Assembly: GCA_964641415.1 (NCBI GenBank) | Contig: CAZXMW010000006.1 | Span: forward strand, 2,088 to 66,087 | DNA from: an uncultured Thermoanaerobaculia bacterium | GTDB taxonomy: Bacteria; Acidobacteriota; Thermoanaerobaculia; Thermoanaerobaculales; Sulfomarinibacteraceae | Length of the DNA stretch: 64,000 bases | Direction of reading: 5' to 3' | Part shown: piece by piece, positions 1,938 through 54,790 of the stretch | How positions within the stretch are numbered: position 1 is the stretch's first letter | How the letters are laid out: the number at the start of each line of letters is the position of its first letter | Notes under the pieces: model-generated | Databases searched by the model: none | Told to the model about the DNA's origin: nothing | What the model saw: only the letters and a program-made list of their open reading frames with translations | Made by a program: the position numbers and the translations under genes

Positions 1938-3257
1938 ATGATGCAACGAATCTCCAACATCGTTTTCGGAGTCATCGCGATCATCGCGATCGGGACGGTT
2001 CCTCTCTGTGCCGCAGACCATTTGGAGGTCTCCGAAGACGGACTCCACCGGGCGGCGCCGAGACCCGATGAGGCTCCGTCGGCGTGGCGGCAGGGCGGCG
2101 ACGTGCCCTACCCGCTGGTTGCCGACTGGACGAGCCCGCTGCGGGTTCAGGTCGGCGGACTCGAGGTCGCCGACGTGGACGGCGACGGCGACAACGACCT
2201 TGTGGTCGGCTGCTACAGCTCGAGCTCATTCCCACCCTATGACGACTGGGAGAATCTGATCTACTTCAACACCGGCACCGAGCTTGAAGCGTCCCCGTCG
2301 TGGGTGTCGGCCGACGAGCGCTCGACCGGGGACATCCGGGTCGCGCTGATCAACGACGACCCCTTCCCGGACGTCTTCGCGGCCAACGGCGGCACCGAGA
2401 TGGCGCCGTCGGTGATCTACTTCGGCTCTGCCACCGGTCCGAGCACGACCCCGGGGTGGTTCGCCGCCGATGTCGCGTGGACCAACTTCGCCGCGCCCTT
2501 CGACTTCGATCACGACGGCGACATCGACGTCGCGACGGCGAACCAGGGCAACTCCCAGTACGACCCGTACCGACCGATGGTGCTGTACGTCAATGACGGC
2601 GGGACCCTCGAGACCAGCCCGAGCTGGGTATCGGCCGAGATCTCGATTCAGAACTTCCTGTCGTGGGGCGATCGCGACGGCGACGGTTGGGAGGACCTGG
2701 CGGTGTCCAAGTGGGCGAACTTCGAAAGTGGTGTCTACCGCAACGTGGCGGGCGTCCTCGATATCACGCCGATCTGGACCACGGGCACGACCGACACAGA
2801 CAAGGGTGTCGGCTGGGCCGATGTCGACGGCGATGACGATCCGGATCTCGCCCTCGGTCACGATCCGACCCAGCTCTGGACCAACACCTCAGGCAGCCTG
2901 GCAGTGACCTGGACGTCGGCGGCGCCCTATCACGGGCACTCCGACCTGAGGTGGGAGGACGTCGACCTCGACGGTGATCCTGATCTCGCCGAGGTCCACT
3001 TCTCGGACGGCCGCGCCCATATCTACCTCAACCGCGCCGGCGTGCTCGACAGCGTGCCGAGCTGGACCTTCGACTCGCCCCACGTCGGCACCGCCATCGC
3101 CTTCGGCGACCTCAACGGCGACGATCTCCCCGACTTGGTGGTCGGCAACTCGGGCGACACGTCGTTGTGGGTGTTCTACAACACCCTCGACTCGGCGATC
3201 TTCGCCGACGGCTTCGAGTCCGGCGGGACCGGGGCCTGGAGCGCCATCTCGCCGTAG
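1938..3257 (+). CDS. secreted FG-GAP/VCBS repeat protein with C-terminal FADGFESG..W motif
   Basis: Signal peptide MMQRISNIVFGVIAIIAIGTVPLCAA. Repeated DVDGDGDxDL / DxDGDGxxDL FG-GAP-type calcium-binding loops. Ends ...SAIFADGFESGGTGAWSAISP. Confidence 0.85.
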   Translation: MMQRISNIVFGVIAIIAIGTVPLCAADHLEVSEDGLHRAAPRPDEAPSAWRQGGDVPYPLVADWTSPLRVQVGGLEVADVDGDGDNDLVVGCYSSSSFPPYDDWENLIYFNTGTELEASPSWVSADERSTGDIRVALINDDPFPDVFAANGGTEMAPSVIYFGSATGPSTTPGWFAADVAWTNFAAPFDFDHDGDIDVATANQGNSQYDPYRPMVLYVNDGGTLETSPSWVSAEISIQNFLSWGDRDGDGWEDLAVSKWANFESGVYRNVAGVLDITPIWTTGTTDTDKGVGWADVDGDDDPDLALGHDPTQLWTNTSGSLAVTWTSAAPYHGHSDLRWEDVDLDGDPDLAEVHFSDGRAHIYLNRAGVLDSVPSWTFDSPHVGTAIAFGDLNGDDLPDLVVGNSGDTSLWVFYNTLDSAIFADGFESGGTGAWSAISP

Positions 3258-3589
3258 GGGAGGGGATCAACCGCGAAGAGGCGAAGGGTCTCCCGCGGGT
3301 GCGGGAATCGCTCCGTCTCACGACATTTCATCGGGAGAGGGAGCGGTCTGCCTCCCCTGAGGGGATTCTTCGACTCGCTCGCGGACTCGCTGGCTCAGAA
3401 TGACATGGGGCCGGACGGCGGTCTCATCGGTCTGCAACGCCAGCCTTCGGATGAGACCTCAGCTCGGGTGAGATGCTTCGCGGCATCTTCGCGGGCTTCG
3501 CGTTTTTGCGGTTTCATCGTGCCTCGTCGCCGGTCGGCCCTCGATGGGCCCAACGCCCTCCCGGCCTGCCGACCCGAACGTACGAGCCC

Positions 3590-4456: not shown

Positions 4457-4568
4457 GTGTTCCTCCTCGGGTTTGATCCTCAGACGAAACAGATCCGACC
4501 GCCGAGCCCTTCCGTCCGTCGCCTCACTCGTTCAAATTCAAAGATTTCAACGCCGTTGTCTGCATCGA

Positions 4569-8209: not shown

Positions 8210-8226
8210 CGGATCGGCGCTCCCGA

Positions 8227-10926: not shown

Positions 10927-11013
10927 GGCGAGCACTGCCGGTGGATGATGGAATTCGGGCGATGCTCGAACGCATTCGGCGATGGGAAGAACAGCAAGAC
11001 GAAGGAGTCCAGC

Positions 11014-32796: not shown

Positions 32797-33539
32797 CCCT
32801 CGCTGTCGGACAGAGAGGGCTCGGCCTCGGCCTCGGCGGTGACGTTCTCATCGGGCTCATCAGGCGCTGTGAACTCGGCGGCAAAGGCGTCGAGAGAGGC
32901 GACCTGGAAGGCATCGCGACGACCTTCGGTGTGCGACCGTACCGCGGCCACCAGCTCGGGCGCCACCGCGGGGGCCTGGTTCGACCACGAGTTCCGGATG
33001 TAGGTCATGACCGAGGCGATCTGCTCGTCGCTGAGGTGTGCCCAGCCCGGCATGACGCCGTTGTAGGTTTGACCGAGCACTGTGATCCGGCCCTCCAGCC
33101 CGTGCAGCAGCAGCGCCGCCAGCACGTCGGGACGGCCGGTGACCCAGGATGCACCGTCGAGTGGCGGGTAGTTGCCGGCAACGCCCTGCCCGTCGGCCTG
33201 GTGACAGGCCTGACAGTTGTTGTAGACCCGCCTGCCGAGCACCAGGGGGTCGATCGCCTCGACCGCCTGCTCTTCGGCGGAGGTGAGTCCTCCCTCGAGC
33301 AGGGCGCGCTCGTCGTAAACGTCGGGTCGGAAGCCACCCGAGTACATGCCCAGATACCAGCCCATGACGCCCATCAGTGCCAGGGCCCCGAACATGAGCC
33401 ACATCGGCACCGGCTCGTAGCCGTCCCTGGGTTCGGCCGTCTCGCGGTAGATCGGCTCGTGAATGTCGACGACGGCGCCGGTCTCGTCCTCGTGACGGTC
33501 GAGATTGTCGCGGTCGGTGGTGTCGTCGGCCGGGGTCAT
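32793..33539 (-). CDS. membrane-anchored monoheme c-type cytochrome (CcoP-like position)
   Basis: One TM (WLMFGALALMGVMGWYL), a single CQACH heme motif and an acidic C-terminal tail. Start and stop overlap both neighbours. Confidence 0.75.
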   Translation of the reverse strand: MTPADDTTDRDNLDRHEDETGAVVDIHEPIYRETAEPRDGYEPVPMWLMFGALALMGVMGWYLGMYSGGFRPDVYDERALLEGGLTSAEEQAVEAIDPLVLGRRVYNNCQACHQADGQGVAGNYPPLDGASWVTGRPDVLAALLLHGLEGRITVLGQTYNGVMPGWAHLSDEQIASVMTYIRNSWSNQAPAVAPELVAAVRSHTEGRRDAFQVASLDAFAAEFTAPDEPDENVTAEAEAEPSLSDSEG

Positions 33540-34147
33540 CAGGGCACCTCCGGAACCGGGTGGCTGGCATCCAGGCTCTTGAGATACGCGACCAGGGCCT
33601 TGGCGTCATAGGTCGGAACGACGACCACGTCGTCGCCCGGGTCCCACTCGGGTGGGAAGCTCAACGCGTCGTACGGGCGCTCGATCTCGAGGGTGAACTC
33701 GTCGAAGAGAAAAGAAAACGGCGGCATGATCGAGCCCGGCGACGTGATCTCGGGCTTGTACAGGTGCAGCAGGTGCCAGTCGTCGCTCGGCTGGCGAACC
33801 CCGATATTGGCGAGATCGGGCCCGGTCCGCATGGTGCCGAGCAGCGGTGGCCGGTCGTAGATGTGGTCGCGGGCGACGGTGCGGCGGCTGCCCCAGCCGC
33901 GATCGATATCGGCCCCGAAACCGGGCGGTCGGACCTGCTGGCTGTGGCAGTAGATGCAGCCGAGCGAGATGTAGACCTGCCGGCCGTGGGCGACGAGGCC
34001 GGCTGGCTCGACCGGGTAGGAGGCGCCGTCGTCGTTGACGACGGGCTCGAGACCGCCGAGCTGTCGCTGCGGAATCACAGTCATACCCGTGAACGACACG
34101 AGCACCGTGAACAGGACGCCGACGTAGAGCAGAGTGACCCGGTTCAT
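33539..34147 (-). CDS. ccoO: cbb3-type cytochrome c oxidase subunit II (monoheme)
   Basis: N-terminal anchor, GCIYCHSQQVRP heme site, GPDLANIG...WHLLHLYKPEITSPGSIMP block typical of CcoO. Confidence 0.9.
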   Translation of the reverse strand: MNRVTLLYVGVLFTVLVSFTGMTVIPQRQLGGLEPVVNDDGASYPVEPAGLVAHGRQVYISLGCIYCHSQQVRPPGFGADIDRGWGSRRTVARDHIYDRPPLLGTMRTGPDLANIGVRQPSDDWHLLHLYKPEITSPGSIMPPFSFLFDEFTLEIERPYDALSFPPEWDPGDDVVVVPTYDAKALVAYLKSLDASHPVPEVP

Positions 34148-35607
34148 CCCTCACCTCCCGTCAGCTCCGCCCGTGGGTCGAACACGGTCGGCCCCTGGAT
34201 ATCGCGGGCTGCGGGCCGGAAGACGAGCCACAAAGACACCGCGAAGAAGACGTGCCCGAGGGTCATCAGCACCCCGGCCACGGTGCGCGACCAGAGATAC
34301 GGAATCGTCATCGCCACGATGTCGAGAAACGGGATGTCGGGGTTGTTCATCTGCAGGCCCTGGAGCCAACCGCCCCAAGTCAGACCGCTCCAGTACAGCA
34401 CCATCCCGACCGCGGTCAGCCAGAAGTGGGCCCTGATGAACGACGCCGACGGCCACTCGCGGCCGGTCAGTCGCGGCACGATGTAATAGATCGACCCGAA
34501 CATGACCATCGAGAAGAACGAGTAGACGCCGAGGTGGGCGTGGGCCACGGTGTAGTGGGTGAAGTGGCTGATCTCGTTGACCGTACGCAGGGCCTGAAGC
34601 GAGCCCTGAAAGCTGACCACGGTGTAGCTCATGGCGCCGAACACGATGAAGCGCAGGGTCGGGCTGACCTTGAGCTTGTCGAAGTGCCCCTTGGTGGTCA
34701 TGTGATGGTTGATGGCCACCGTGGTGACGGGAATGAGCATCATCACCGACCCGACCGTACCGACGGTGATCAGCCAGGCCGGGATCGGACCGCCGATCAG
34801 GTGGTGGGTTCCGGCCCAGTTGTAGAACAGCGCCAGGGTCCAAAAGCCGAGGATCGACAGGTAGTAGCTGTGGATGGGTCGGCCCAGGACCTTGGGCAGC
34901 AGGTAGTAGACCGCCGCCAGCCCGATCGGGGTGAACCACAGGCCGAGCACGTTGTGGGCGAACCACCAGTTGGCCGATGCCTGGACCACGCCCGTGGCCA
35001 GATTGCCGTGGATCAGGGCGTTGCCCTGGGCATAGAGGAACGGAAACCACAACACCGAGCCGAACAGGTACCACTGCGAGACGTAGATGTGGCTGACTTT
35101 TCGACGGGTGAACATGGTCAGGGACGAGAACATGAGAATCGCGAACAGGCCGGCGAAGACGAAGGACCAGTGGTAGGGAAACTCGAGCCATTCGACGCTC
35201 GTACCGTGACCGGCGAGGATCGACCATGTGCCGCCGGCGACCGCGATGTTCCACAGCACGCAGGTGACGATCAGCGGCAGCTGCATCGGCAGCGTGACCC
35301 GGCACAAACGTGCGGTCAGCCAGAGCAGCACTCCGATGCCGGCCATGGAGCCCCATCCGTAGATCATCGTGTTGAGGTGGGCCGGACGGACCCGGCCGAA
35401 AGTCAACCAGTCCCAGTCGCCCAGAAATACCGGCGTGTGGAGCTTGATCGAGGCGAGCAGCGCCAGCCCCGACCCGAAGAGCAGCCAGGCCACGGAGCTG
35501 GCGAAGAACAGCATGACGACCAGCGCGGTCGAGCGATCGACGCCTTCCCGCCAGCTGACGGTCGACGGTTCCGGCATGCCGTACGGAGCTTCAAGCTGAT
35601 CGTTCAC
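34144..35607 (-). CDS. ccoN: cbb3-type cytochrome c oxidase subunit I
   Basis: 487 aa, about 12 TM. Blocks RPAHLNTMIYGWGSMAGIG, WWFAHNVLGLWFTP, HHLIGGPIPAW, HFTHYTVAHAHLGVY are CcoN-type. Confidence 0.9.
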   Translation of the reverse strand: MNDQLEAPYGMPEPSTVSWREGVDRSTALVVMLFFASSVAWLLFGSGLALLASIKLHTPVFLGDWDWLTFGRVRPAHLNTMIYGWGSMAGIGVLLWLTARLCRVTLPMQLPLIVTCVLWNIAVAGGTWSILAGHGTSVEWLEFPYHWSFVFAGLFAILMFSSLTMFTRRKVSHIYVSQWYLFGSVLWFPFLYAQGNALIHGNLATGVVQASANWWFAHNVLGLWFTPIGLAAVYYLLPKVLGRPIHSYYLSILGFWTLALFYNWAGTHHLIGGPIPAWLITVGTVGSVMMLIPVTTVAINHHMTTKGHFDKLKVSPTLRFIVFGAMSYTVVSFQGSLQALRTVNEISHFTHYTVAHAHLGVYSFFSMVMFGSIYYIVPRLTGREWPSASFIRAHFWLTAVGMVLYWSGLTWGGWLQGLQMNNPDIPFLDIVAMTIPYLWSRTVAGVLMTLGHVFFAVSLWLVFRPAARDIQGPTVFDPRAELTGGEG

Positions 35608-35824
35608 CGCTGTGTCCTTCCTCGTTGTCTTCGTCGCGCGGGTCGTCGTCGGCAGGGAAGGCGTCGGTCATGACGCCGACCGGCTCGTCGTCGTCGAAGA
35701 TGCTGGTCGCTCCAGCGCCGAAGTTCTGGAGCTGACCGGTGCGCACGGCCCAAACTAGACCGGCGACGGCGGTGAGGCCGAACATGATGACCGAACCGAA
35801 GATGAAGACATAGATGAGGGTCAT
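35591..35824 (-). CDS. ccoS: cbb3 oxidase maturation protein CcoS/FixS-like
   Basis: MTLIYVFIFGSVIMFGLTAVAGLVWAVRTGQLQNFGAGATSIFDDDEP: single TM plus the SGQ(Y/L)..(L/F)..A....(L/F).DD pattern of CcoS. Overlaps the ccoN start. Confidence 0.7.
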   Translation of the reverse strand: MTLIYVFIFGSVIMFGLTAVAGLVWAVRTGQLQNFGAGATSIFDDDEPVGVMTDAFPADDDPRDEDNEEGHSGERSA

Positions 35825-36497: not shown

Positions 36498-37688
36498 ATG
36501 ACGCGGTCAAAGGTGTTGCTTCTCGTGCTCGGTGTTGTTCTGTCAATTTCCGGAGATGCCGGTGCGGGAGGGCCCCGCCCGATCGCACATCCCTTCGACG
36601 GCGCCGACACGACCGGCATTCCGTCGTATGCGGTCGAGTGGCCGGTGCAGCGGGTCGCCACCGATCACCTCGTTCTCGGCGCGGACCACATTCTCGACCA
36701 GCAGTGCCACAACGGTGGCTTCGGCTGGCCCCATGACGACTGCTCGGCGACCTTCCACAGCATCACCGGCCCGATTCTGCTCGGCGTGTTGGGTGCGTAC
36801 GCGTTGACCGGAGACGACAGCCTTCTGGTCGGGGCGGTGAACGGGGGCGTGTTCGACCTGACCTATCAATATGACAACGGAGAGGTGCGCTTCGCGACAT
36901 TCACGCCGTTCTTCTTGCTCGAGCTGGCCGCCGCGTCGGGAAACTCGACTTTCTCGAGCTTTGTCGCAACCGAGCTGTTCGACGAGCTCGCCAACGGCAC
37001 GTACGGACCTGACGACCTCGACACGGCGGGTTGGATCGCAGTCATCGAGACCGGCCGGAGCGGTGCGTGGGTCAACCTCCGGCCGTGGGAGTTCCACAAC
37101 CTCGTCGCTTCCGCCCGGGCGCTTGGACACCCCGGTCAAGACGCGCTCTTCGAGCAGGGCGTGCTCGACGGTTTGAACACCCTCGACAACGGAGATCCCA
37201 CAACCGTGTACTCGGACGTCATCGGTCTCGCGGGCGCCGTCCAGGGCCTCGCGTTGGCGCGTCGACTGACCTTCCCCGCGATCGTTGCCCCGCTGCACCC
37301 GGGGGTGCATGCGATCGCCTCCCTGGAGGATCTGGCCGCTTACCTGTCCTCGTTGCAGAACCCTGACGGCTCGTGGAACTGGCACTCGAACGTCGCGGCG
37401 CCGACCATCGAGGACGAGGACGTGCAGACCACGGCCTATGCGCTGCTCGCGCTGCTCGAGGCCGACACCCTGACCGGGATGAGCTATGTCGGCGCGACCG
37501 AGACGGCGCGCGATTGGATCGTGTCGCTCCAGCTGCCCAACGGCGGCTTCCCGCAGTGGCCCGGCGGCGACGAGAACACCGAGGTCGAGGGTGAGGCGCT
37601 GACCGCCGTGGCGGTCTTCGACGCCCGGATCTTCGTCGACGGCTTCGAGTCGGGATCGACGGACCTGTGGTCCGCCCTGTCCCCGTAA
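36498..37688 (+). CDS. secreted prenyltransferase/squalene-oxidase-repeat (alpha/alpha toroid) protein with C-terminal FVDGFESG..W motif
   Basis: Signal MTRSKVLLLVLGVVLSISGDAGA. Repeats QCHNGGFGWP, LQNPDGSWNW, LQLPNGGFPQWPG. Ends ...ARIFVDGFESGSTDLWSALSP. Confidence 0.8.
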   Translation: MTRSKVLLLVLGVVLSISGDAGAGGPRPIAHPFDGADTTGIPSYAVEWPVQRVATDHLVLGADHILDQQCHNGGFGWPHDDCSATFHSITGPILLGVLGAYALTGDDSLLVGAVNGGVFDLTYQYDNGEVRFATFTPFFLLELAAASGNSTFSSFVATELFDELANGTYGPDDLDTAGWIAVIETGRSGAWVNLRPWEFHNLVASARALGHPGQDALFEQGVLDGLNTLDNGDPTTVYSDVIGLAGAVQGLALARRLTFPAIVAPLHPGVHAIASLEDLAAYLSSLQNPDGSWNWHSNVAAPTIEDEDVQTTAYALLALLEADTLTGMSYVGATETARDWIVSLQLPNGGFPQWPGGDENTEVEGEALTAVAVFDARIFVDGFESGSTDLWSALSP

Positions 37689-41207: not shown

Positions 41208-42248
41208 TTGCAGAGCCTCAAGGCGGCACCACGTCGACTGTCATCATCAATCACAGAGACGAAGATTCAGTCGCGTTTTCAACTGAGTCGCGCGGTCGCT
41301 CCGCCTTGGCTCGCGGTGGCGGTGGTGGCGGGATCGTTCGCGTTGATTCCGGCGGCTGCCGGCGCCGGCCAAGCTGAGGGTGCGGGTGCCGACGGGCTCC
41401 GAGTCGTCCTCGACAGAGGTGAGATCGTCATCGCTCTCGACCGGGCCGCGGCGCCGGACTCGGTCCTGGCAATTCTGAAGCTGACGGAGCCCGCCCCCCG
41501 ACCCGACGGCGAGACCGCCGGGTACTATGACGGGCTGACCCTCGACCACACCTGGCCTCACATCGAGCTCGGAACCGGGGTCCGTTCGGACCAACCGGTG
41601 ACGATTCCGCAGGAGATCTCCGCCGAGTCGCTCGGGCTCCACCGCGAGCACATCACTCGAGGCAGTGAGGCAATGAACCTCTGGCAGTTCGAGTTCGCGG
41701 AGGCCAACGAGCGGTGGAAGGCCCGGGGAAACCGCCCGGAGATCTTCGAAACATGGCTCGAGATCTTCGAGCAGACCGGGTCGGTGGACTTTTTGACGGC
41801 GGTATCCAGGAAGGAGATCAACGAGGTCCTCGGCTACCGGTACGTTCGGGGTCGAGAGAGTCTGCGCGCGCGCCGAGGCAGTGTCTATCTCAAGCCCAAA
41901 TCAACCGTGGAAAACAGCCCGGCGCTGCGGATTCTCCTCGCCGATCGGCCGCAGCTCGACGGCCGGGTCACCGTGATCGGTCGCGTCGTCAGCGGCCTCG
42001 AGCTGGCCCACGAGCTCTCACTGTGCGACCTCAAGACGTTCCGCAACCGTCCGGTCTACCAGCCCGTCGACCCGGTGGTGATCCGCCGGTTGGAGGCCGT
42101 CGACCTGGCGGATGCGATTGCGGATGCCGATTCGTCCGGCGACGTCGACCAGCCCGATGGTGGACCGGAGCAGAGTCGGTCCGAGACACGAACCGAAACG
42201 GACAATCAGCCGCACGACGCGGCCGAACCAGAAGGAGGAAGTCCATGA
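41208..42248 (+). CDS. divergent cyclophilin-type peptidyl-prolyl isomerase domain protein (with large insertion), exported
   Basis: GGGAGGA RBS before TTG 41208 (the track start ATG 41139 is also possible). Signal-like WLAVAVVAGSFALIPAAAGA. Blocks GEIVIALDRAAAPDSVLAILKL...YYDGLTLDH and RILLADRPQLDGRVTVIGRVVSGLELAHEL resemble the cyclophilin N- and C-terminal blocks. ATGA overlap with the next gene. Confidence 0.55.
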   Translation: MQSLKAAPRRLSSSITETKIQSRFQLSRAVAPPWLAVAVVAGSFALIPAAAGAGQAEGAGADGLRVVLDRGEIVIALDRAAAPDSVLAILKLTEPAPRPDGETAGYYDGLTLDHTWPHIELGTGVRSDQPVTIPQEISAESLGLHREHITRGSEAMNLWQFEFAEANERWKARGNRPEIFETWLEIFEQTGSVDFLTAVSRKEINEVLGYRYVRGRESLRARRGSVYLKPKSTVENSPALRILLADRPQLDGRVTVIGRVVSGLELAHELSLCDLKTFRNRPVYQPVDPVVIRRLEAVDLADAIADADSSGDVDQPDGGPEQSRSETRTETDNQPHDAAEPEGGSP

Positions 42249-44665
42249 GTCCCTCGATCACCAGAGCGATCATGATCACCCGCATCGATCCCCGGATCAT
42301 CGTTTTCGCGGCAGTCGGCGCGGCGGTGCTCTGGACTCCGCTCGTCGCCGCCCAGAACCCCAACACCTCTCCGGTCCGGGACTTCGCGGCGCCGAGCGCC
42401 CCGTACGAGATGACGGCTGCAGGATCCGTCCCGCGCCACGGGATCGAAGTGCCGCACCTCGAGGGCGGTCCGGTCGCGCCGGTTCCTTCCGAGGTGGTGA
42501 GCATGTCGGAGGTGCTCGAAGCGCCGCCCGAAGAGCTCGTGAACGGTCCCAGGTTCCACATTCAGGGCGATCCGGTCGAGGGCGGGCGGATCAACGGCGG
42601 GACCATCGAAGGCGGCATTCCGCCGGGACCGGAGTCCGAGGTTCCGGCAAGCGACCGCGGCGCGACCTATCTTGACTTCGAGGGCATCGACTCCTCGGGC
42701 TGGATCCCGCCCGATACCGTGGTCGCGGTCGGTCGGTACGACATCGTCGAGGCGACCAACTCCGGCTTCGCCGTCTACTCGAAGACCGGGCGTGAGATTC
42801 AGGGTTACACGACCTTCGCCTCGTTCTTCGGCACCAGCGAAACCCTCTTCGATCCCCGCATCGTCTACAACCCGACGAAGGACAGGTACGTGATTCTGAT
42901 TCTCGAGCGGAACCCGACGACGCAGTCGTCGAGGCTTCGCATCGCGATTTCCCAGCAGGCCTGGGCCGACGGAGACTGGTGGCGGTGGAACTTCAACGTC
43001 GAGCACAGTGACGAACTCGACTGGATGGACTACGCGACGCTCGGCGCGGACGACTACGGAATCTACTTCTGCGGCAACATGTACAACTGGACGGGCGGTT
43101 TCCGGTGGGCCAAGCTGTGGACCTTGTCGCCGGCCATGTGGACCGGTGGCACCGCGGTCGGTTGGCAGTTCTGGGACCTCGAGTTCTCCGGTGGCGACAC
43201 GGCGTTCGGTCTCCAGTTCGCCGACCCCCACTCCATCAACAGCAACGAGGAGTCGTACTTCGTCAACACCTGGTCGGGCTTCGGGTCCGAGGTCGGCCTG
43301 TGGACGGTGACCGGGGACCGGTCCGGCGCTGGGGGCGCACCCGGTCTGTCGGTGACCACGATCAGCGGCCTGCCGTCCTACTACGCTCTCGGGGAGAACG
43401 TCGACCAGCCCGACACCGGCTCTGACATCGACGGGGGCGACAGCCGGGTGATGAACGCCAAGTACGTCAATCGCCGAGTGTTCTTCACCCTGGGCACCGA
43501 TGTCAACAACGACGGGACCGATGGCGGCTGGTACACCGTGAAGCTCGACTCGGATGCCGGAACCCTCGACTGGAGTCACGTTCTCTGGACCAACAACCAG
43601 TACTACACCTATCCCGCGATCACCGTCGCGGGCGGCTCGAACTCGGCCAACATCGGCCTGCTCGGCACCTGGACCAACGGCACCGACCGCTACCCGAGCA
43701 CGATCTACAAGATCTACGACGACCACCCGAACTCGAGCTCGGGCGATTTCCTGCTGTATCAAGGCGGCGTCGCCTCCTATGTTCAGCGCGACTCGAACAG
43801 CCGCAACCGTTGGGGCGACTACAGCGGCGCCGATTACGACTGGGCCTGCGGCCACCTGGTCGGCGCGGCCGAGTTCACGGATGCGCTCAACAGCTGGTCG
43901 ACCCAGATCCTGATGACGACCTTCGACGCCGAGCCCGGCTGCCCGCGGATCGACATCACGAGCCCCGGCCAGGGCGATATGTTCGTCGGCGGAAGAACCC
44001 ATACCATCGACTGGTCGAGGCTCTTCCTTCCAGCGGGCGACGACCTCTTCGTCTTCTACTCCGTCGACAACGGCGCCAGCTGGACGCAGATAGGAGGCGC
44101 TCTCCCGTCGAGCGCGACATCCGTCCAATGGACGACTCCGATCTTCACGTCCACCGGCCAGGGCAAGATCTTCGTCGGTTCCTGGGACGGCAGCGCGTAC
44201 ACCACCACCGACCGCAGCGACTTCAACTTCGACATGGCGGGCTGTGTCGACGATCTCTACGAACCGAACGACGTCTGTTTCGGCGACGAGATTCCGATCG
44301 GAACGTCACAAAACCACGTTGCGTGCGACAACGATTGGATCGCGTTCTACCCGACCGCCGGCGCGACCTACCGCATCGAGACATCGGCACTGCAGGGCGG
44401 CGCCGACACGGTCATGAGCCTCCATGAGGACTGTGGTCCCACAGTGGCCTTCGACGACGACGGCGGCGCCGGTCAGGCATCGCTCATCGACTACACGTCG
44501 ACCACGGGAACCGCCCTCGACGTCGAGGTCACCATGTTCTCCGGCGCCTATGCGGCGGACAAGAGCTACACGATCGCCGTCACCTGCACGACATGCTGCG
44601 ACGGCGCCTGCTTGCTGTTCGCCGACGGCTTCGAGAGCGGTGACACGTCGGCCTGGGGTCCGTAG
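42245..44665 (+). CDS. large secreted beta-propeller-like protein with pre-peptidase C-terminal (PPC) domain and C-terminal FADGFESG..W motif
   Basis: AGGAGGA RBS. Signal ...IIVFAAVGAAVLWTPLVAAQ. RWGDYSGADYD-type propeller block. PPC block DDLYEPNDVCFGDEIPIG...CDNDWIAFYPTAGATYRIET. Ends ...CDGACLLFADGFESGDTSAWGP. Confidence 0.8.
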   Translation: MSPSITRAIMITRIDPRIIVFAAVGAAVLWTPLVAAQNPNTSPVRDFAAPSAPYEMTAAGSVPRHGIEVPHLEGGPVAPVPSEVVSMSEVLEAPPEELVNGPRFHIQGDPVEGGRINGGTIEGGIPPGPESEVPASDRGATYLDFEGIDSSGWIPPDTVVAVGRYDIVEATNSGFAVYSKTGREIQGYTTFASFFGTSETLFDPRIVYNPTKDRYVILILERNPTTQSSRLRIAISQQAWADGDWWRWNFNVEHSDELDWMDYATLGADDYGIYFCGNMYNWTGGFRWAKLWTLSPAMWTGGTAVGWQFWDLEFSGGDTAFGLQFADPHSINSNEESYFVNTWSGFGSEVGLWTVTGDRSGAGGAPGLSVTTISGLPSYYALGENVDQPDTGSDIDGGDSRVMNAKYVNRRVFFTLGTDVNNDGTDGGWYTVKLDSDAGTLDWSHVLWTNNQYYTYPAITVAGGSNSANIGLLGTWTNGTDRYPSTIYKIYDDHPNSSSGDFLLYQGGVASYVQRDSNSRNRWGDYSGADYDWACGHLVGAAEFTDALNSWSTQILMTTFDAEPGCPRIDITSPGQGDMFVGGRTHTIDWSRLFLPAGDDLFVFYSVDNGASWTQIGGALPSSATSVQWTTPIFTSTGQGKIFVGSWDGSAYTTTDRSDFNFDMAGCVDDLYEPNDVCFGDEIPIGTSQNHVACDNDWIAFYPTAGATYRIETSALQGGADTVMSLHEDCGPTVAFDDDGGAGQASLIDYTSTTGTALDVEVTMFSGAYAADKSYTIAVTCTTCCDGACLLFADGFESGDTSAWGP

Positions 44666-46510: not shown

Positions 46511-46740
46511 TGCGGCTACTCCTCGGGATTCGTTCGCGTGGTGCGATGGCGGCCGGTCGAGCGCGCTCGGCGCGAACCTCAAGGATCGGCGGCGGTCTCC
46601 ATCCAGGGTCGACCGTCTCGTCGTTCGAGTGTCATCCCGCCCATTGTTGCACTGCCCCGGGGATCCTGCACGGGCGAGTCGATGTGCGCTGGTATTTTCT
46701 CGTCGGCATGAGGAGCACGCGATCGCTCGGGGAAAGGGGC

Positions 46741-47177: not shown

Positions 47178-47250
47178 CCGCCGCGAAGCGACGCTTTACG
47201 GTGTCAGGAGCCCGCCGGACGCGACGTCCGGAACGTCGACGGAGGATCCG

Positions 47251-47757
47251 ATGTATTTCCTCGCACCACCGGAGCCGCCATCCGACGATCCCCGGTGGAA
47301 GATGGTGGCAGCGGTCATGCGCCGGCACGGCCATCGCCCGGATGCCGCGATCGAGAGCCTGCACGCGGTGCAGGAGGCGTTCGGCCACCTCGATCCGGAG
47401 GCGCTTCGGTACGTTGCCGTCAGCCTCCGGGTGCCGCTGAGCCGGATGTACGGGCTGGCGACCTTCTACCACTTCTTCTCGCTCGATCCGCCGGGCGATC
47501 ACACCTGCATTCTGTGCACCGGGACGGCGTGCTACATCAAGGGCGTTCCCGGCATCGTCGCCGCCGTGCGGTCGGCCTTCGGGCTCGAGCTCGGCGAGAC
47601 CGCCGCCGACCGGTCGCTGTCGTTCAAGAGCGCCCGCTGCCTCGGCGCCTGCGGCCAGGCGCCGATCGCCGTCATCGACGATGCGATGGTCGGCAGCTTG
47701 ACGCCCGAGTCGGCCGTCGAGGAGCTTCGAAAGGTCATGAGCCATGGCGACGACTGA
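47251..47757 (+). CDS. hoxE: bidirectional hydrogenase diaphorase subunit HoxE (NuoE-like 2Fe-2S)
   Basis: GGAGGA RBS. Blocks [11 protein letters not shown] and [10 protein letters not shown]...[14 protein letters not shown]. Confidence 0.85.
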
Positions 47758-49357
47758 AGACCTCGAGGAGGTCATTGCTGAAGAGCGCGAACGAATGGCG
47801 GCGTTCCGCCACCGTCTGCTCGTGTGCACCGCGTCGGGCTGCCCCAACGGCCGCATCGTTCGCGACGCGCTCGCCGAGGCCGTCGCTGAAGAGGGCCTCG
47901 CAGACGAGATCGACGTGGCCGGCGTCGGCTGCATGGGGCTGTGCGCGAAAGGCACTCTGGTTGCGGTTCTGCCGGCGGAAATCCTGTACGGGCCGGTGAC
48001 GCCGTCAGACGTTCGGGAGGTTGTCTCGTCGCTCGGCGGCGAGCCGGTCCGGCGCCTGGTCGTCGATCTCGAGATGCCGTTCTTCACCCGCCAGCGAAAG
48101 GTCGTGCTCGAGAACTCGGGCCGGGTCGATCCCGACCGGATCGAGAGCGCACTCGATGCCGGCGGCTACGCCTCGCTGGTTCGCGCGCTGACCGAGATGA
48201 CGCCGTTCGCGGTCATCGACGAAGTGACCCGGTCAGGTCTGCGCGGTCGCGGCGGCGGAGGCTACCCGACCGGTCTCAAGTGGTCGACGGTGGCCAAGTC
48301 CGAGGGCGACCAGAAGATCGTCATCTGCAACGCCGACGAGGGCGACCCCGGCGCCTTCATGGACCGCTCGGTGCTCGAGTCGGACCCGCACCGGGTGCTC
48401 GAGGGCATGGCCATCGCCGCCTACGCGGTGGGTGCAAACCAGGGCTACATCTACGTCCGCGCCGAGTACCCCCTCGCCATCGAGCGGCTCCAGACCGCCA
48501 TCAAGCGCGCGCGGCGACTGGGCCTGCTCGGCTCGAGCGTCGTGTCGACCCCGTTCAACTTCAAGGTGGAGGTCCGGCTCGGCGCCGGCGCCTTCGTGTG
48601 CGGCGAGGAGACGGCCCTCATCGCCTCCATCGAGGGCCGGCAGGGCTTCCCGGTCCCGAGACCGCCGTATCCCGCCGAGCGCGGGCTGTGGGATCGCCCG
48701 ACCCTGATCAACAACGTCGAGACCTTCGCCAACGTGCCGTCGATCATCCGCGACGGCGGCGACGCGTTCGCCGCCGTCGGCACCGAGCGATCCAAGGGGA
48801 CCAAGGTGTTCGCTCTCGCCGGCCGGGTCGTCAACACCGGACTCATCGAGGTGCCCATGGGAACAACCCTCGGCGAGATCATCGTTGACATGGGCGGAGG
48901 AGTTTCGGGCGGACTCGCCTGCAAGGCAGTGCAGACCGGGGGACCGTCCGGCGGATGCGTACCGGCCCATCTGTTCGAGACGCCGGTCGACTACGAGAGC
49001 TTGCTCGACCTCGGCTCGATGATGGGGTCCGGCGGGATGATCGTCATGGACGAGTCCTCCGACATGGTCGACGTGGCGAGGTTCTTCATGGAGTTCTGCA
49101 TGACCGAGAGCTGCGGCAAGTGCGTTCCGTGCCGGGTCGGCACCGCCCAGCTGCACGATCTGCTGCGACGGATCACCGACCGGCAGGCGTCGCCCGACGA
49201 GCTCGCGACGCTCGAGGCGCTGTGCGAGATGGTTCGCGACACCTCGCTGTGCGGGCTCGGGCAGTCGGCGCCCAACCCGGTCCTGTCGACGCTCCGCCAT
49301 TTCCGCGATGAGTACGTCGAGCGGCTGTCGGCCCACGCGACGGCCGGGGAGGTGTGA
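47744..49357 (+). CDS. hoxF: bidirectional hydrogenase diaphorase subunit HoxF (NuoF-like, FMN/NAD)
   Basis: Motifs [41 protein letters not shown]. Confidence 0.9.
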
Positions 49358-49358
49358 G

Positions 49359-50072
49359 ATGGCGCCGCGCATCGTCACCCTCAGGATCGACGGCCGCGAC
49401 GTCGGCGCCCGCGATGACGAGACCGTGCTCGAGGTCGCACGCGAGAACGGTATCGACATCCCGACGCTGTGCTTCCTCGAGGGGTTGTCGACGGTCGGAG
49501 CGTGCCGGCTGTGCCTGGTCGAAATCGGCTCGAGCTCGAAGCTGGTGCCCGCCTGTGTGACCCGGGTCGAGGAGGGAATGGAGGTCCGCACCGACACCGA
49601 CCGGCTCCGGCTGTACCGGAGAACGGTGCTCGAACTCATCTTCTCCGAGCGCAATCACGTGTGTGCGGTGTGCGTGTCCAACGGCTTCTGCGAGCTTCAG
49701 AGCCTCGCGGCCCGGCTCGGGATGGACCAGGTCGGGGTCCCGTACCGGTTCCCGAGGTTCGAGGTCGACGCGAGCCACCCGCGCTTCATCAACGACCCGA
49801 ACCGCTGCATCCTGTGCAGCCGCTGCATCCGGGTCTGCGACGAGATCGAGGGGGCCCACACCTGGGACGTCGCCCGGCGCGGCGTCGACGCCCACGTCGT
49901 GGCCGACCTCGGCGGCAGGTGGGGCGACTCCGAGACCTGCACCGGCTGCGGCAAGTGCGTCCAGGTCTGTCCCACGGGGGCGCTCACCGAGAAGGGCCAC
50001 GCGGTCGCCGAGATGCGCAAGCAGAGCAAGTTCCTGCCCTATCTGCGGGCGATGCGGGAGAGCCGCCGATGA
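49359..50072 (+). CDS. hoxU: bidirectional hydrogenase diaphorase subunit HoxU (NuoG N-terminal-like Fe-S)
   Basis: Motifs GACRLCLVEI (2Fe-2S), CILCSRCIRVC, CTGCGKCVQVCPTGAL. Confidence 0.9.
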   Translation: MAPRIVTLRIDGRDVGARDDETVLEVARENGIDIPTLCFLEGLSTVGACRLCLVEIGSSSKLVPACVTRVEEGMEVRTDTDRLRLYRRTVLELIFSERNHVCAVCVSNGFCELQSLAARLGMDQVGVPYRFPRFEVDASHPRFINDPNRCILCSRCIRVCDEIEGAHTWDVARRGVDAHVVADLGGRWGDSETCTGCGKCVQVCPTGALTEKGHAVAEMRKQSKFLPYLRAMRESRR

Positions 50073-50602
50073 CCGCCAAGATCACCATGGCGACGGTCTG
50101 GCTCGACGGTTGCTCGGGCTGTCACATGAGCTTCCTCGATCTCGATGAGCGTCTGCTCTCACTCGCCGAACGGGTGGAGCTGGTGTACAGCCCGCTGGTC
50201 GACGCGAAGGCCTTTCCTGAGCACGTCGACCTGGTGCTGGTCGAGGGTGCCGTTGCGACCGAAGAGGACCTGCAGAAGGTCGAGATGATCCGCGGCCGCG
50301 CCAGGATTCTCGTGTCGCTCGGCGACTGCGCGGTGACCGGCAACGTGGCGGCCCTGCGCAATCCATTCGGCACCGATGCCGTCTTCGAGCGGGCCTACGA
50401 GGAGCACGTCACCGCCGAGCCGCGTCGTCCCGACCGCGAGCTCCCGGTGCTGCTCGAGCGCGCGACGCCGGTGCACGAGAAGGTGACCGTGGATCTCGTG
50501 ATTCCAGGATGTCCGCCCTCGGCTGATCTCATCTGGCACGCTCTCAGCGAGCTCGTCGAGGGTCGGATCCCCGACCTCACCGCCGAGACCCGATTCGGTT
50601 AG
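50069..50602 (+). CDS. hoxY: NiFe hydrogenase small subunit HoxY (group 3d)
   Basis: Motifs [33 protein letters not shown] overlap with hoxU. Confidence 0.9.
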
Positions 50603-50612
50603 GAGCCCGGTC

Positions 50613-52043
50613 ATGACCGAGACTGTCGTCATCAACCCCGTCACCCGTATCGAGGGCCACGGCAAGATCACCATCGAGCTTGACGAGCACGGCTTCGTCG
50701 CCGGCGCGCGGTTCCACGTCACCCAACTGCGCGGTTTCGAGACCTTCTGCCAGGGCCGGCCGTTCGCCGAGATGCCGTCGCTCATGGCCCGGATCTGCGG
50801 CATCTGTCCGGTCAGCCACCTCGTGGCGTCAGCCAAGGCCTGCGACGACGTGATGGCGGTGACGGTCCCTCCCACCGCCGAGAAGCTCCGTCGCGTCATG
50901 AATCTGGCGCAGATCATCCAGAGCCACGCGCTGAGCTTCTTTCATCTGTCGTCGCCGGACCTGCTGCTCGGCATGGACGCCGAGCAGGACCAGCGCAACT
51001 TCCTCGCCCTCGCCGCGCACCACCCGGGAATCGTTCGCGAGGGCATCGAGCTGCGGAAGTTCGGCCAGCAGGTCATCGAGATGCTCGGGGGCCGCCGCAT
51101 CCACCCGGCCTGGATCGTGCCCGGCGGCGTTGCCGCGCCGCTGGAAAGCGACCAGCGGGACGCCATCGCCGAGCGGATCCCGAGCCAGATCCGGGTCGTG
51201 CAGCGCACCCTCGACTGGTTCAAGAGCCTGCTCGAAGGGTTCGCGGAGGAGATCCGGTCGTTCGCCAACTTCCCGTCGGCCTTCATGGCGCTCGTCGACG
51301 ACGACGGCGGGCTCGAGCACTACGACGGCCGGCTCCGGGTCGTCGACGCCGCCGGCGAAACGACGGTCGACGACGTCGACCCGACACGGTACGAGGGGCT
51401 CATCGGCGAGGCCGTCGAACCGTGGACCTACCTCAAGTTCCCCTACCTGCTGTCGAAGGGCTACCCCGACGGCATGTATCGGGTCGGGCCTCTGGCGCGG
51501 CTCAACGTCGTCGACTCCTGCGGGACACCGTGGGCCGATCAGGAGCTCGCCGAGTTTCGCGGGCTCGGTCACGGCGCGGTTCACTCGTCGTTCTACTTCC
51601 ACTACGCGCGACTCATCGAGATTCTCTTCTGCCTCGAGCGGATGCAGCAGATTCTCGCCGACGACGGCGTCCTCGACCCGCGGGTCCGGGCCCACGCCGA
51701 CGCCAACTCGTCCGAGGGAATCGGCGTGGCGGAGGCGCCGCGCGGGCTGCTCATCCACCACTACCGGGTCGATCGCCAGGGGCTGGTCGAGGACGCCAAC
51801 CTCATCATCGCCACCGGACACAACAACCTGGCCATGAACCGCGGGGTCTACCAGGTCGCGAAGCGCTTCATCCGGGATGGACGCCTCGACGACGGTATCC
51901 TCAACCGGGTCGAAGCGGTGATCCGCGCCTTCGACCCCTGCCTGTCGTGCTCGACCCACGCCGTGGGGAAGATGCCGCTTGAGCTCCGGCTCGTCGACGT
52001 GCGCGGCCGAGAACTCGACCGTTTGGTGCGCGACGACAAATAG
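50613..52043 (+). CDS. hoxH: NiFe hydrogenase large subunit HoxH (group 3d)
   Basis: N-terminal [10 protein letters not shown] and C-terminal DPCLSCSTH NiFe-ligand motifs, followed by a cleavable extension [13 protein letters not shown]... Confidence 0.95.
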
Positions 52044-52044
52044 C

Positions 52045-52488
52045 TCAGGCAGTCTCGACGAGCGCGACAACTGCGGCGACGGCCTCGGGGAGGGCCGCCT
52101 CGACCGCAGGTGAGAGCGCTTCACCGAGCTCGAGGTTGCCGGCGCCGACGCTGACGAGCCAGACCTCGGGGCGGCCCTCGAAGAGAGCGTACGCCCCGTT
52201 GACGAGCTCCTGGGGACCGAGCAGGTGCGCGGCGGCAGGCTGCCAGCCGGTGTCGGTCGGTCGGATCGGGGTTCGGCGGATCTCTCCGGGCGCCAGATCG
52301 ACGGCGGCGTCCACGAGCACCACGCGCTGAGCACGGGCGGCCGCCTCGATGTGCTCCGGCAGCAGCTGGTGCACCTCGAGCACCTCGGCCTCGACCATCG
52401 ACGCCACCTCACGGGCAACGGCGGGGCCGACGCCATCGTCGCGCCTGAGCCGGTTGCCGACGCCGACAACGAGAACTCCGGATCGCAT
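52045..52488 (-). CDS. hoxW: hydrogenase maturation endopeptidase (HoxW/HycI family)
   Basis: MRSGVLVVGVGNRLRRDDGVGPAVA... with a later VVLVDA block. Convergent with hoxH, with one nucleotide between the two stop codons. Confidence 0.85.
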   Translation of the reverse strand: MRSGVLVVGVGNRLRRDDGVGPAVAREVASMVEAEVLEVHQLLPEHIEAAARAQRVVLVDAAVDLAPGEIRRTPIRPTDTGWQPAAAHLLGPQELVNGAYALFEGRPEVWLVSVGAGNLELGEALSPAVEAALPEAVAAVVALVETA

Positions 52489-52531
52489 GATTCCTGTGAA
52501 GTGTAACCGGTTGTGGGGGCGGTTGACTCCA

Positions 52532-52729
52532 CTGTGCCCGTCGTGCGCGGCGAAGCGGTCGGCCGCGACGGAGAGAAAAACCGGTTGCGCCCGCGTGGGT
52601 GCCGGGCTCCAACTTTGTACGCCGCGAACAAAGTTGCGTGCCTGGCATCCCCTTCCATCGCGATGCGGAAAACAAGCGCCTAGGGGCGTGGTACCTTCGA
52701 GGCAGGTGAAAGGAAATTCCTATCGGAGC
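52532..52729 (+). repeat. repeat family D, copy 1 (198 bp), 5' part of a long non-coding region
   Basis: Near-identical to 56643..56838 (about 9 differences including a 2-nt indel). Contains hairpin CCGT..CGCGGC-N10-GCCGCG-ACGG, the string TTGCGCCCGCGTGGGTGCCGGG, and a perfect 9-bp hairpin CAACTTTGT-N9-ACAAAGTTG. Confidence 0.85.
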
Positions 52730-53326
52730 GGCCGACAAGGTCGCGAGTCTTGCGGGGTGGAAGTCCCCGCGCCCTCAATTGCCCGGTTCGGAGGGCTAGC
52801 ATATCCGATGCATACACCGGTAACGATGCATGTTCTGCTCGGACGTAAACGCCACGGCCGCCCTGCGGTTGGAATTCGCGGAGGTGGGAGCGACCTGGGT
52901 GGCAGGCAAACTTGGAGGCCCGAACATCATGGAATTGCTGCAGTTGCGAAATTCCCTTCCACTGTGAAGTTGCTGGAGTGGGTATTCGCGGGGGAGCCGA
53001 CCTGTGATAGGACGGGGACGGCCGATGATGCGGGGGAAGAAACGGGCGAGTGCACCCCGCAGACCGCTGCGACGGGGGCCCGAGCATCCAAGGATACAAG
53101 CCAGGGTCAGAACCGGACTCGGAAAATCCGACCGTCCGGGATCGTAGCGGGGCCCATGGAGACGTGGACCATGGTTGGAGCTGCACGGGCACGGACCGCC
53201 GAAAGGCCGACACAGCCAAGCCTTGACCTAACGCCGCGCGCGCCAAGGTTCTATCACGACCGTCGTCCCGAAGCGACACGGGTTTCGGGGTATCGTTCAA
53301 TCGTCAAAAGGCAGTGGAGGCGACAC

Positions 53327-54790
53327 ATGACAGGACGATGGATGGCCGCACTGGCCGTGGTGGCGATGGCGGGAAGCGGCGTCAGCGCCCTCGCCGTCGA
53401 GCCCGAGAACGGAGTCGAGGCCGCAAGGAGGGCAGCCGACGCGTTGTCGATGGCCACGGAACAGACACCGATCACCGGTTCGCTTGACGGCGTCATCATG
53501 GAGGAAGAACCGCCCTCCGCGCCGAACCTCAAATGGCTGCACTCCCAGGCGGTGATATCGGCCCCGACGCTCGAGATGGTCGAGCCGTCGATTGCCACGG
53601 CTCCGGACGGCCGGCTGTTCGCCGCCGTGGATGAGAGAGGGACGGCGGCGATTTACATCTATCATTCGACGGACTACGGCGTGACGTGGTCGCCGCTCGT
53701 AGTGTACGCGCACGGGCCGCTGACCCGGAACCCGGCGCTGGCATATGCCGAGATTTCCGGCCAGAAGTGGCTCGTCTTCGTCTACGAGCTCGTGCTCTCG
53801 GATGCTTCACGATCGTTGTACGCGTTCCGTTTCGATCCGGACGACACCGGGAACTGGATGACCGTCCCCATCGAAATCGACATCTCGTGGCTGAACGCAT
53901 CGACCGAGCTCCACCCGCAGATCACAACGGACTACCTCGATTGGCCCTCGCCTTATTTTTACGTGACCTACGCCACTCCGTCGATCGAACACTATCCGGT
54001 CTTCTTCACCCGGAGCACCGATCAGGGAGCGACCTGGAGCACCCCGGAGGAAGTCAGCGGGGGTTCCGATATCACCGGCTTCGAATCGAAGCCGGAAATC
54101 ACGTACTGCGCATATGACGACGATGTCTACATCGCATTCAACAAACCGGGGTGGACCGGCAGTGCCTGGGAGCAGCAGGTCTGGGTCACGAAGAGTGGAA
54201 ACTGCGGAGCAGCGGGCTCGTGGCAAGCTCCGGTTCAGGTGACGTCGTCGCCCCGTCCCGACCATCATCCCTCGATCGCAGCCGCGTGGGACGCCGCGAC
54301 GATCGTCGTGAGCTTCACGTCTGAGTACAGCGCGAGCGACAACGATGTCGAAAGAACGTTCTCGACCGACGGCGGAGCGACCTGGTCAAGCCCAGTTTCG
54401 ATGCCCGGGTGGACCTACGATCAGGAGGACAACGTCGATCTCGCCGCCAGCCGGTCGGCGGGAGGGCGCTTCCACGCGGCCTACCGCAAGGATGAGCCGA
54501 GTCCGGCTCTTGGCCACATCCACTACAGCTGGGCTCACGTCGCGATGCCGGATATTTGGAGCATGCCGGTGATTGTCGACAACACCGCCAACGTCAGCGG
54601 CGCCGGATTCCACCCGCGCCCTTCGATCGCAGTGCTTCAGTCGGTTCCGCCGAGCGTCGATGCGGTGATGGCGTGGACCGAGATCTCCGCGACCTATCAA
54701 GTCATCTTCGACGGTCCCGGGGCCGGCTTGCTCTTCGCCGACGACTTCGAGTCCGGGGGACTCACCGGGTGGTCGGCGACGGTACATTGA
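53327..54790 (+). CDS. secreted BNR/Asp-box (sialidase-like beta-propeller) protein with C-terminal FADDFESG..W motif
   Basis: GGAGG RBS. Signal MTGRWMAALAVVAMAGSGVSALA. Three Asp-boxes: STDYGVTW, STDQGATW, STDGGATW. Ends ...GLLFADDFESGGLTGWSATVH. The 326 codons upstream in the same open frame lack coding-type codon bias. Confidence 0.85.
   Translation: MTGRWMAALAVVAMAGSGVSALAVEPENGVEAARRAADALSMATEQTPITGSLDGVIMEEEPPSAPNLKWLHSQAVISAPTLEMVEPSIATAPDGRLFAAVDERGTAAIYIYHSTDYGVTWSPLVVYAHGPLTRNPALAYAEISGQKWLVFVYELVLSDASRSLYAFRFDPDDTGNWMTVPIEIDISWLNASTELHPQITTDYLDWPSPYFYVTYATPSIEHYPVFFTRSTDQGATWSTPEEVSGGSDITGFESKPEITYCAYDDDVYIAFNKPGWTGSAWEQQVWVTKSGNCGAAGSWQAPVQVTSSPRPDHHPSIAAAWDAATIVVSFTSEYSASDNDVERTFSTDGGATWSSPVSMPGWTYDQEDNVDLAASRSAGGRFHAAYRKDEPSPALGHIHYSWAHVAMPDIWSMPVIVDNTANVSGAGFHPRPSIAVLQSVPPSVDAVMAWTEISATYQVIFDGPGAGLLFADDFESGGLTGWSATVH

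Follow-up and report, generated by a model that had tools for sequence, protein, structure and literature searches.

We report that four otherwise unrelated exported proteins, encoded within one stretch of DNA from an uncultured Thermoanaerobaculia bacterium (the window, that is, the whole stretch analysed: 64 kb, G+C 66.8%), terminate in copies of the same short peptide. The peptide is a self-contained 19-residue module with the consensus LFADGFESGDTSAWSATVP followed directly by the stop codon; an alignment of 85 tails shows no exception to the residues F, D, G, F, E, S, G and W, and 82 of these tails finish with Pro. On balance we favour the interpretation that [LI]F[AV]DGFESGDTSAWSxxVP is a portable C-terminal tag without a transmembrane (TM) helix, which sorts or anchors Sec-exported proteins in Acidobacteriota of the Thermoanaerobaculia/Holophagae type. 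The initial annotation of the window had proposed an undescribed C-terminal sorting tag. The C-terminal enrichment, the diverse cargo, the signal peptides and the tail swaps described below speak for this proposal, which withstood all computational checks that were made; however, the motif is not exclusive to C-termini, and no conserved neighbour gene was found.

The pattern [ILVM]F.D.FE, sought in all six frames of the window, has exactly four matches, which start at 3198, 37629, 44615 and 54731; the fuller pattern [LI]F[AV]D[GD]FESGxxxxW likewise occurs four times. All of them lie on the + strand, 13-19 codons ahead of a stop codon, at the C-termini of real genes that are backed by codon-position G+C. 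The corresponding back-translated DNA pattern is observed four times against 0.00 expected from 100 dinucleotide-preserving shuffles. A hidden Markov model (HMM) trained on 212 tails assigns 28.6-37.2 bits to the ends of the four open reading frames (ORFs) and 10.3 bits to the next best ORF of the window, so that the earlier claim of a C-terminal motif common to four unrelated proteins holds. The residues past the Trp, previously read as SAISP, SALSP, GP and SATVH, were found as such, and in each of the four genes two to five residues separate the Trp from the stop, in agreement with the reported closeness of the motif to the stop codon. The four proteins differ in fold; all four have signal-peptide-like N-termini, as had been stated. 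The four copies are found among approximately 61 genes of the window. When the four DNA regions are aligned, their likeness is limited to the coding motif. Since the codons for Ser and Gly differ between the copies and the likeness ends at the stop codon, the conservation concerns the peptide and not a DNA repeat.

Gene A (1938..3257, + strand) encodes a signal peptide and an FG-GAP repeat protein, 439 aa in all (Pfam FG-GAP_3, E=9e-23); it is an ORF of high third-position G+C (GC3), and its signal-peptide-like N-terminus reads MMQRISNIVFGVIAIIAIGTVPLCAAD. An exact look-up of protein A returned no recorded sequence. The first copy of the tag, IFADGFESGGTGAWSAISP (3198..3254, +), is followed by the stop at 3255-3257 and scores 37.2 bits with the tail HMM. 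Gene B (36498..37688, +; 396 aa, identical to P0249) encodes a signal peptide and an alpha/alpha-toroid of the prenyltransferase/squalene-cyclase-like kind. Its matches to the Pfam families Prenyltrans and SQHop are weak and sub-threshold, and its AlphaFold2 (AF2) model has an all-helical core with a predicted local distance difference test score (pLDDT) above 90. The second copy, IFVDGFESGSTDLWSALSP (37629..37685, +, then stop), was detected both by the motif scans and by the tail HMM; it is unpacked in the model at pLDDT 43-47, and its motif positions are 97-100% conserved among 46 orthologues.

Gene C (42272..44665, +) is a gene call comprising a signal peptide and a protein of about 800 aa for which neither Pfam nor NCBIfam yields a family match; its start codon is uncertain, with another ATG 27 nt upstream. 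It carries a short variant of the tag, LLFADGFESGDTSAWGP (44612..44662, +, then stop; 30.8 bits with the tail HMM), and a close relative, P0002, has the tail ..FIFADAFESGDTSAWVP. Gene D (53327..54790, +; 487 aa, identical to P0369) encodes a signal peptide and a BNR/sialidase-like beta-propeller (Pfam BNR_2, E=1e-8), modelled by AF2 with an all-beta core at pLDDT of about 90. The fourth copy, LLFADDFESGGLTGWSATVH (54728..54787, +, then stop), was also found by the motif scans and the tail HMM and is unpacked at pLDDT of about 30; the orthologues of gene D terminate in ..WSxxxP. As to the fold labels proposed earlier, FG-GAP and BNR are supported by Pfam, the label of a prenyltransferase draws on the sub-threshold Pfam matches, the all-helical toroid model and the source names of homologues only, and the description of protein C as a propeller with a PPC domain finds no match in Pfam or NCBIfam. 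The ORFs of genes C and D stay open for hundreds of codons upstream of the likely starts (41714-42271 and 52349-53326, +); the mechanical ORF lengths of 983 aa (C) and 813 aa (D) are too long compared with about 800 aa and 487 aa and represent a high-GC artefact.

Beyond the window, searching with a profile of the four C-terminal regions brought up 387 proteins. The best 120 of these 387 all contain F.[DN].FE.G....W, and about 100 terminate exactly five residues past the Trp. A HMMER search of 1.84 billion cluster representatives (clusters at 50% identity) returned 6,762 proteins at E<=1e-3. Because protein searches are open to bias from fragments, metagenome contigs were also scanned with a degenerate DNA pattern that makes no assumption on the position within a protein, and 116 matches with a downstream stop codon within the locus were counted. 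Of these matches, 83 (72%) end no more than eight residues past the Trp and 56 end exactly five residues past it, 53 of the latter with a final Pro. The motif is C-terminal in 45 of 60 full-length ORFs, compared with 1.3 expected under uniform placement, and this bears out the C-terminal anchoring suggested for it. Several metagenome loci hold two tagged genes each. All carriers with a source name belong to Acidobacteriota: Thermoanaerobaculia, Thermoanaerobaculales, Holophagae or simply "Acidobacteriota bacterium".

Three side observations concern the scanned contigs. At five loci (L003, L010, L012, L013 and L016) from GTDB long-read metagenome-assembled genomes (MAGs) of Thermoanaerobaculia/Holophagae, the tags are broken by single-base indels that stem from errors of the long-read assemblies, and the +1 frame restores ..W..VP and then the stop; gene calls in such long-read MAGs will miss or shorten tagged proteins. 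On IMG/VR contigs, which are labelled viral (L155-L170), 13 of 18 pattern matches are C-terminal tags on signal-peptide proteins, with more variable ends past the Trp (GGAS, GAP, TARKGE). No recognisable virion proteins were found among these tagged proteins; their genes probably belong to the host and lie on contigs that flank prophages or were misclassified, and they have no bearing on function. Finally, an amidohydrolase gene is directly followed, in the +1 frame, by a 54-aa ORF with the tag at its end. A long-read ENA contig (L151, 8671-10165) and a short-read Logan contig (L152, 554-2048), identical at 1488 of 1495 nt, share this arrangement; either a tagged gene in decay or a true frameshift may account for it.

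The proteins that bear the tag are diverse. All-against-all clustering of the ORFs from 80 tag-bearing loci and the window distributed 75 tagged ORFs over many small families, each present at no more than four loci. They include FG-GAP, BNR, toroid, subtilisin, peptidase C25/PorU-like, DUF11 repeat, beta-helix, CSLREA and choice-of-anchor Q and J proteins. A choice-of-anchor Q domain in the CSLREA protein scores 36.6 bits (cutoff 25); on a tagged protein, a choice-of-anchor J-like domain reaches 27.3 bits, just under the cutoff of 30. A crude hydrophobic-window test was positive for a signal peptide in 43 of 48 tagged full-length ORFs compared with 112 of 350 untagged ones; at the resolution of this test, nearly all tagged proteins have a signal peptide. 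The most recurrent tagged family (about 1050 aa; L103, 3125-6394, as well as L077, L041 and L042) has a peptidase C25/PorU-like region with weak NCBIfam matches to models of PorU, the sortase of the type IX secretion system (T9SS), together with a choice-of-anchor J-like domain, and is itself tagged.

Among the members of an orthologue family, conservation is 97-100% at the motif positions and 34-60% at those in between. Conservation of the tail is close to that of the folded core: 0.74 vs 0.79 in family B and 0.75 vs 0.71 in family D. The occurrence of family-specific variants, such as ..TDLW.. in family B, indicates that the tails are inherited with their genes. In the AF2 models built with orthologue alignments (mean pLDDT 88.5 for B and 79.6 for D), the tail has pLDDT 30-47 and is not packed on the core, be it an alpha-toroid or a beta-propeller.

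The orthologues of proteins B and D present the tag as an exchangeable part. About 70 close homologues of B (59-77% identity) retain it. Distant orthologues of B (46-58% identity) have the same end of the core, ..ENTEVEGEAL.A.., followed by another tail in the slot of the tag. One type of such tail is ..IPTVSEWGL with a hydrophobic helix and Arg/Lys, another is ..PIPALGxxG with a helix and LRRR, and two more, the short ..PVPVELMSFSIE and ..DRIYxSGLECYxN, have neither a TM helix nor a basic cluster. The IPTVSEWGL tails match the NCBIfam model TIGR04174 (IPTL-CTERM), with P0332 at 22.8 bits (cutoff 20.5) and two others just under the cutoff. Homologues of D retain the tag down to 41% identity; in distant ones (37-39% identity) it is replaced by dockerin-like DxNxDG repeats, by a tail reading ..LPFLPLLLLD or by an extra domain. 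As far as can be judged from sequences, this replacement of the tail in one and the same slot is the "choice of anchor" pattern, the eighth of the attributes listed by Haft and considered below.

The tails of these homologues include other forms as well. The low-GC B orthologues P0360, P0363 and P0366 end in a truncated ..[MV]FSD[GS]FE(N) and the stop, which points to another lineage that uses the FxDGFE core by itself at C-termini. Tails that occupy the same slot without a TM helix or a basic cluster (..PVPVELMSFSIE, ..DRIYxSGLECYxN and ..SGSLPFLPLLLLD) are held by the B and D homologues P0349-P0351 and P0356; P0355, P0358, P0364, P0365 and P0367; and P0392-P0394. These tails may be further undescribed tags.

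Haft defined eight attributes of small C-terminal protein-sorting signals in a survey whose signals are all tripartite, with a helix and an Arg cluster (bioRxiv 10.1101/2023.06.07.544157). Attributes 4 and 5 are a strongly hydrophobic segment consistent with a TM helix and a terminal basic cluster; attributes 6 and 7 are an N-terminal signal peptide in most members and the existence of many pairs dissimilar outside the signal; attribute 8 is the absence or replacement of the signal in homologues from other lineages (10.1101/2023.06.07.544157). Six of the eight are seen in our tag: the C-terminal position (1), multiple occurrence per genome (2), invariant residues (3) and attributes 6, 7 and 8, the second being scored on the four copies among the approximately 61 genes of the 64-kb window and on the loci with two tagged genes.

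Thus the tag resembles the signals of the pairs PEP-CTERM/exosortase, IPTL-CTERM/exosortase H, GlyGly-CTERM/rhombosortase, MYXO-CTERM/myxosortase and LPXTG/sortase in its extreme C-terminal position and multiple copies, its invariant residues, its presence on unrelated signal-peptide proteins and the existence of orthologues with another signal, here IPTL-CTERM. In contrast to these tripartite signals, it has neither a hydrophobic helix nor an Arg cluster and is net acidic; therefore, it cannot sit in the inner membrane or be cut by an intramembrane enzyme. The initial annotation considered the tail unlike known sorting signals, and we agree: scanned alone, the tails match no Pfam-A or NCBIfam (release 20, June 2026) model even at E<=10, none of the NCBIfam sorting-domain models among them. 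The IPTL-CTERM model (TIGR04174) likewise gives no match for the window proteins or their tails at E<=10, its matches being limited to the distant B orthologues. No description of the tail motif was found in the papers searched.

Two other systems deserve comparison. The C-terminal domain (CTD) of T9SS cargo, typical of Bacteroidota, folds as a beta-sandwich of roughly 70-100 residues. Like our tag, it is a C-terminal signal free of membrane segments in diderm bacteria, borne by Sec-exported, periplasmically folded cargo that includes many diverse hydrolases and adhesin-like proteins. The tag differs in having 19 residues, in being predicted by AF2 to be unstructured alone and in belonging to Acidobacteriota; the T9SS CTD models of NCBIfam and Pfam have no match on the tagged proteins. 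Dockerins are domains of about 60-70 residues with duplicated calcium-binding loop-helix motifs. The tag is likewise a C-terminal, modular, acidic and non-membrane appendage of secreted enzymes, occasionally duplicated in tandem, and it is the DxNxDG repeats of dockerin type that fill its slot in distant D homologues; however, it is a single 19-residue unit of another sequence, and we know of no cohesin-like partner for it.

The data themselves show the motif, its anchoring at C-termini, its abundance, the purifying selection on it, the diverse cargo with signal peptides, the exchange of tails between orthologues and a tail that stays unpacked in the models; that the tag sorts or anchors its cargo, that a receptor for it exists and how the two would bind is what we infer. 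We presume the following sequence of events. The cargo would cross the inner membrane via Sec and lose its signal peptide, then fold in the periplasm, with the acidic, aromatic tail remaining exposed and flexible. A putative envelope component would bind the tail and either route the cargo to the cell surface or retain it there. The tail would thereby fill the slot that is occupied in orthologues of other lineages by IPTL-CTERM (the exosortase H signal), by other tails with a TM segment and Arg or by dockerin-like modules. Since the tag has no membrane helix, its recognition would occur in the periplasm or at the outer membrane rather than inside the inner membrane. The tail copies the first beta-hairpin of jelly rolls of the CBM4_9/ConA-like type (see below), and our most concrete guess for its recognition is therefore beta-augmentation onto a partner. 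It is quite possible, although we put it forward as tentative, that Acidobacteriota of the Thermoanaerobaculia/Holophagae type possess an unrecognised sorting or surface-anchoring pathway in which a 19-residue hairpin label without a TM segment, borrowed from a jelly roll, is read by a putative periplasmic or outer-membrane receptor or translocon.

A number of observations weigh against the tag being a C-terminal sorting or anchoring signal. A TM helix and a basic cluster, common to all described small sorting signals of this class, are lacking: just five residues (SATVP) follow the Trp, with no hydrophobic stretch as required by attribute 4, and the consensus is without Lys or Arg and carries D, E and D, being net acidic in disagreement with attribute 5. 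(That the tail has no TM helix or basic end was correctly noted before.) The evidence for tail swapping is drawn from two protein families only, B and D. The ORF clustering of the 80 loci and the window revealed no untagged family that recurs beside tagged genes. Further, in 24 of the 116 metagenome matches (21%) the motif is followed by 119-245 or more residues, and most of the top-scoring representatives have two to five internal copies spaced 190-290 residues apart. In the proteins with internal copies, the motif forms the first hairpin of ConA-like jelly-roll domains. The full 19-residue unit, including ..VP, also occurs as short tandem pairs or triplets at C-termini, internally ahead of low-complexity linkers and, in one case (P0234), directly after the signal peptide. 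Such non-C-terminal copies fit a binding module better than a signal read at a free C-terminus.

We conclude from the jelly-roll, tandem, internal and N-terminal copies that this is a portable module concentrated at C-termini and not a strictly C-terminal signal. The end point five residues past the Trp then corresponds to the length of the module and need not mean that the free carboxyl end is read. An internal motif serving merely as a lectin-like strand had been named in advance as the case that would speak against a tag; it applies to about one fifth of the matches, which are jelly-roll first hairpins, whereas the C-terminal enrichment is very strong.

The relation to jelly rolls requires consideration in its own right. 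The jelly-roll domains match Pfam Polysacc_lyase at 32.3 bits (cutoff 29.9) as well as Polysacc_lyase_14, Laminin_G_3 and the N-terminal part of CBM_4_9, and they close with a matching last strand, e.g., ..YFDAFES.. or ..FDDV.V. A search of the PDB sequences with one of the domains gave only a weak match to Cip1. The first beta-hairpin of these domains (CBM4_9/ConA-like, LamG, polysaccharide-lyase-like) has the same sequence as the tag, [LIV]F.D[GD]FE.G....W. The difference is in what follows: the tag ends in ..VP and the stop in 72% of the metagenome matches, with nothing after the hairpin, so that no jelly roll can form in cis. At the four window genes, no complete jelly roll (about 130-200 residues) was found past the hairpin, either in frame or nearby downstream.

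It is tempting to propose that the tail is a miniature counterpart of a dockerin, i.e., a non-covalent docking peptide that donates the missing first hairpin, possibly bridging Ca2+, to an incomplete ConA-like jelly roll of a scaffold or surface protein. This would tether enzymes to the cell or to one another and overlaps, as a sub-mechanism, with the sorting and anchoring tag that we favour. The identity of the tail with the first hairpin of domains related to Polysacc_lyase, Laminin_G_3 and CBM_4_9 is consistent with it, as are the matching last strand of these domains and the dockerin-like repeats in the tag slot of distant D homologues; the tandem, internal and N-terminal copies make sense for a binding module, and the models predict an exposed and flexible tail. 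However, no "acceptor" jelly roll lacking its first hairpin was found in the approximately 1 Mb of sequence searched, which counts against the sorting tag as well, although only to the extent of that search. Moreover, a single 19-residue hairpin offers a small interface, and the B orthologues exchange the tail for sorting signals of the covalent type (IPTL-CTERM) and not for docking modules alone. We consider docking of this kind unlikely.

A tail that is exposed and disordered in the models and contains invariant residues might also be what a periplasmic or extracellular protease or modifying enzyme recognises, whether for maturation, for turnover or to modify the protein covalently; localisation would then not be involved. 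C-termini are read by tail-specific proteases and PDZ domains, and the fixed distance of the motif to the C-terminus resembles such reading. Nevertheless, this would leave the exchange of the tail for surface-sorting or docking modules unexplained, and no candidate gene for such an enzyme could be linked to the tag among the 80 loci. We regard this explanation as improbable.

Another alternative is a structural leftover without a sorting role: the tail might be what remains, as a first strand, of a lectin-like domain that was lost or truncated, or else a peptide of the generic kind found at domain boundaries. An identical motif does open hundreds of jelly-roll domains, often two to five per protein, and the low-GC B orthologues do end in a truncated ..MFSDGFE. 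However, a leftover would decay, whereas the motif residues are 97-100% conserved between orthologues of 41-77% identity, on a par with the folded core. The end point is also fixed (56 of 116 stop exactly five residues past the Trp, 53 of them with Pro), and the tail is found on dozens of unrelated folds. A peptide of 19 residues is unable to form a jelly roll. In view of the strong purifying selection and of the fixed end point, we regard a vestigial stump as very improbable.

A DNA-level feature translated by chance (a repeat, the end of a mobile cassette, a recombination site or an assembly artefact) has nothing in its favour but the recurrence itself and is practically negligible, being refuted by the differing synonymous codons, the loss of likeness at the stop, the family-specific variants and the presence of the motif in hundreds of independent assemblies with vertical inheritance in orthologue families.

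The window was also considered as a source of the machinery for the putative tag, and nothing compelling was found among its genes; likewise, the gene surroundings of P0094 and P0003 contain no candidate machinery. A fragment of a rhomboid-family protease lies at the left edge of the window (1-461, - strand), on the strand opposite to gene A and about 1.5 kb upstream of it. It was examined as a rhombosortase-like enzyme for the tag and set aside because an intramembrane protease would find no membrane helix to cut in the tag. Directly upstream of gene C (41316-42248, +) lies the gene of a secreted cyclophilin-type prolyl isomerase. Neither the rhomboid fragment nor the cyclophilin could be linked to the tag. 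The window also encodes MacB-type ABC transporter genes and TonB-dependent receptors.

Other genes of the window are mentioned for completeness. Just upstream of gene B, cbb3-type cytochrome oxidase genes (COX1, FixO and cytochrome CBB3) lie together with a P-type ATPase (30778-35824, -). Genes for a bidirectional, NAD-linked [NiFe] hydrogenase of the Hox type span 47251-52043 (+); in addition to the small subunit and the NiFe large subunit, they encode an Fe-S subunit, a 2Fe-2S thioredoxin-like protein and a Nuo51-like protein. At 58571-59730 (+) there is an insertion-sequence-like pair in which an rve-family integrase comes after a small helix-rich ORF.

In our view the tag probably represents a new kind of address label. 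Acidobacteriota rank with the most abundant bacteria of soils and sediments; to our knowledge, the export and display of their hydrolases and adhesin-like proteins are poorly known. A short and easily recognised tag on a large exported set (6,762 clusters) would improve the annotation of the secretome and offer a handle for phylogenetic profiling of the machinery by which it is read. Moreover, it would extend the C-terminal signals by a helix-free class, unlike all described small sorting signals, and could be categorically new if its machinery proves distinct. If the tail is instead a strand-donating docking peptide, it would represent a very small natural system for protein tethering, with a possible use in engineering. 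If the proposed pathway exists, it would be a new route of cell-surface display in diderm bacteria, parallel to the exosortase-type and type IX systems and serving many diverse cargoes.

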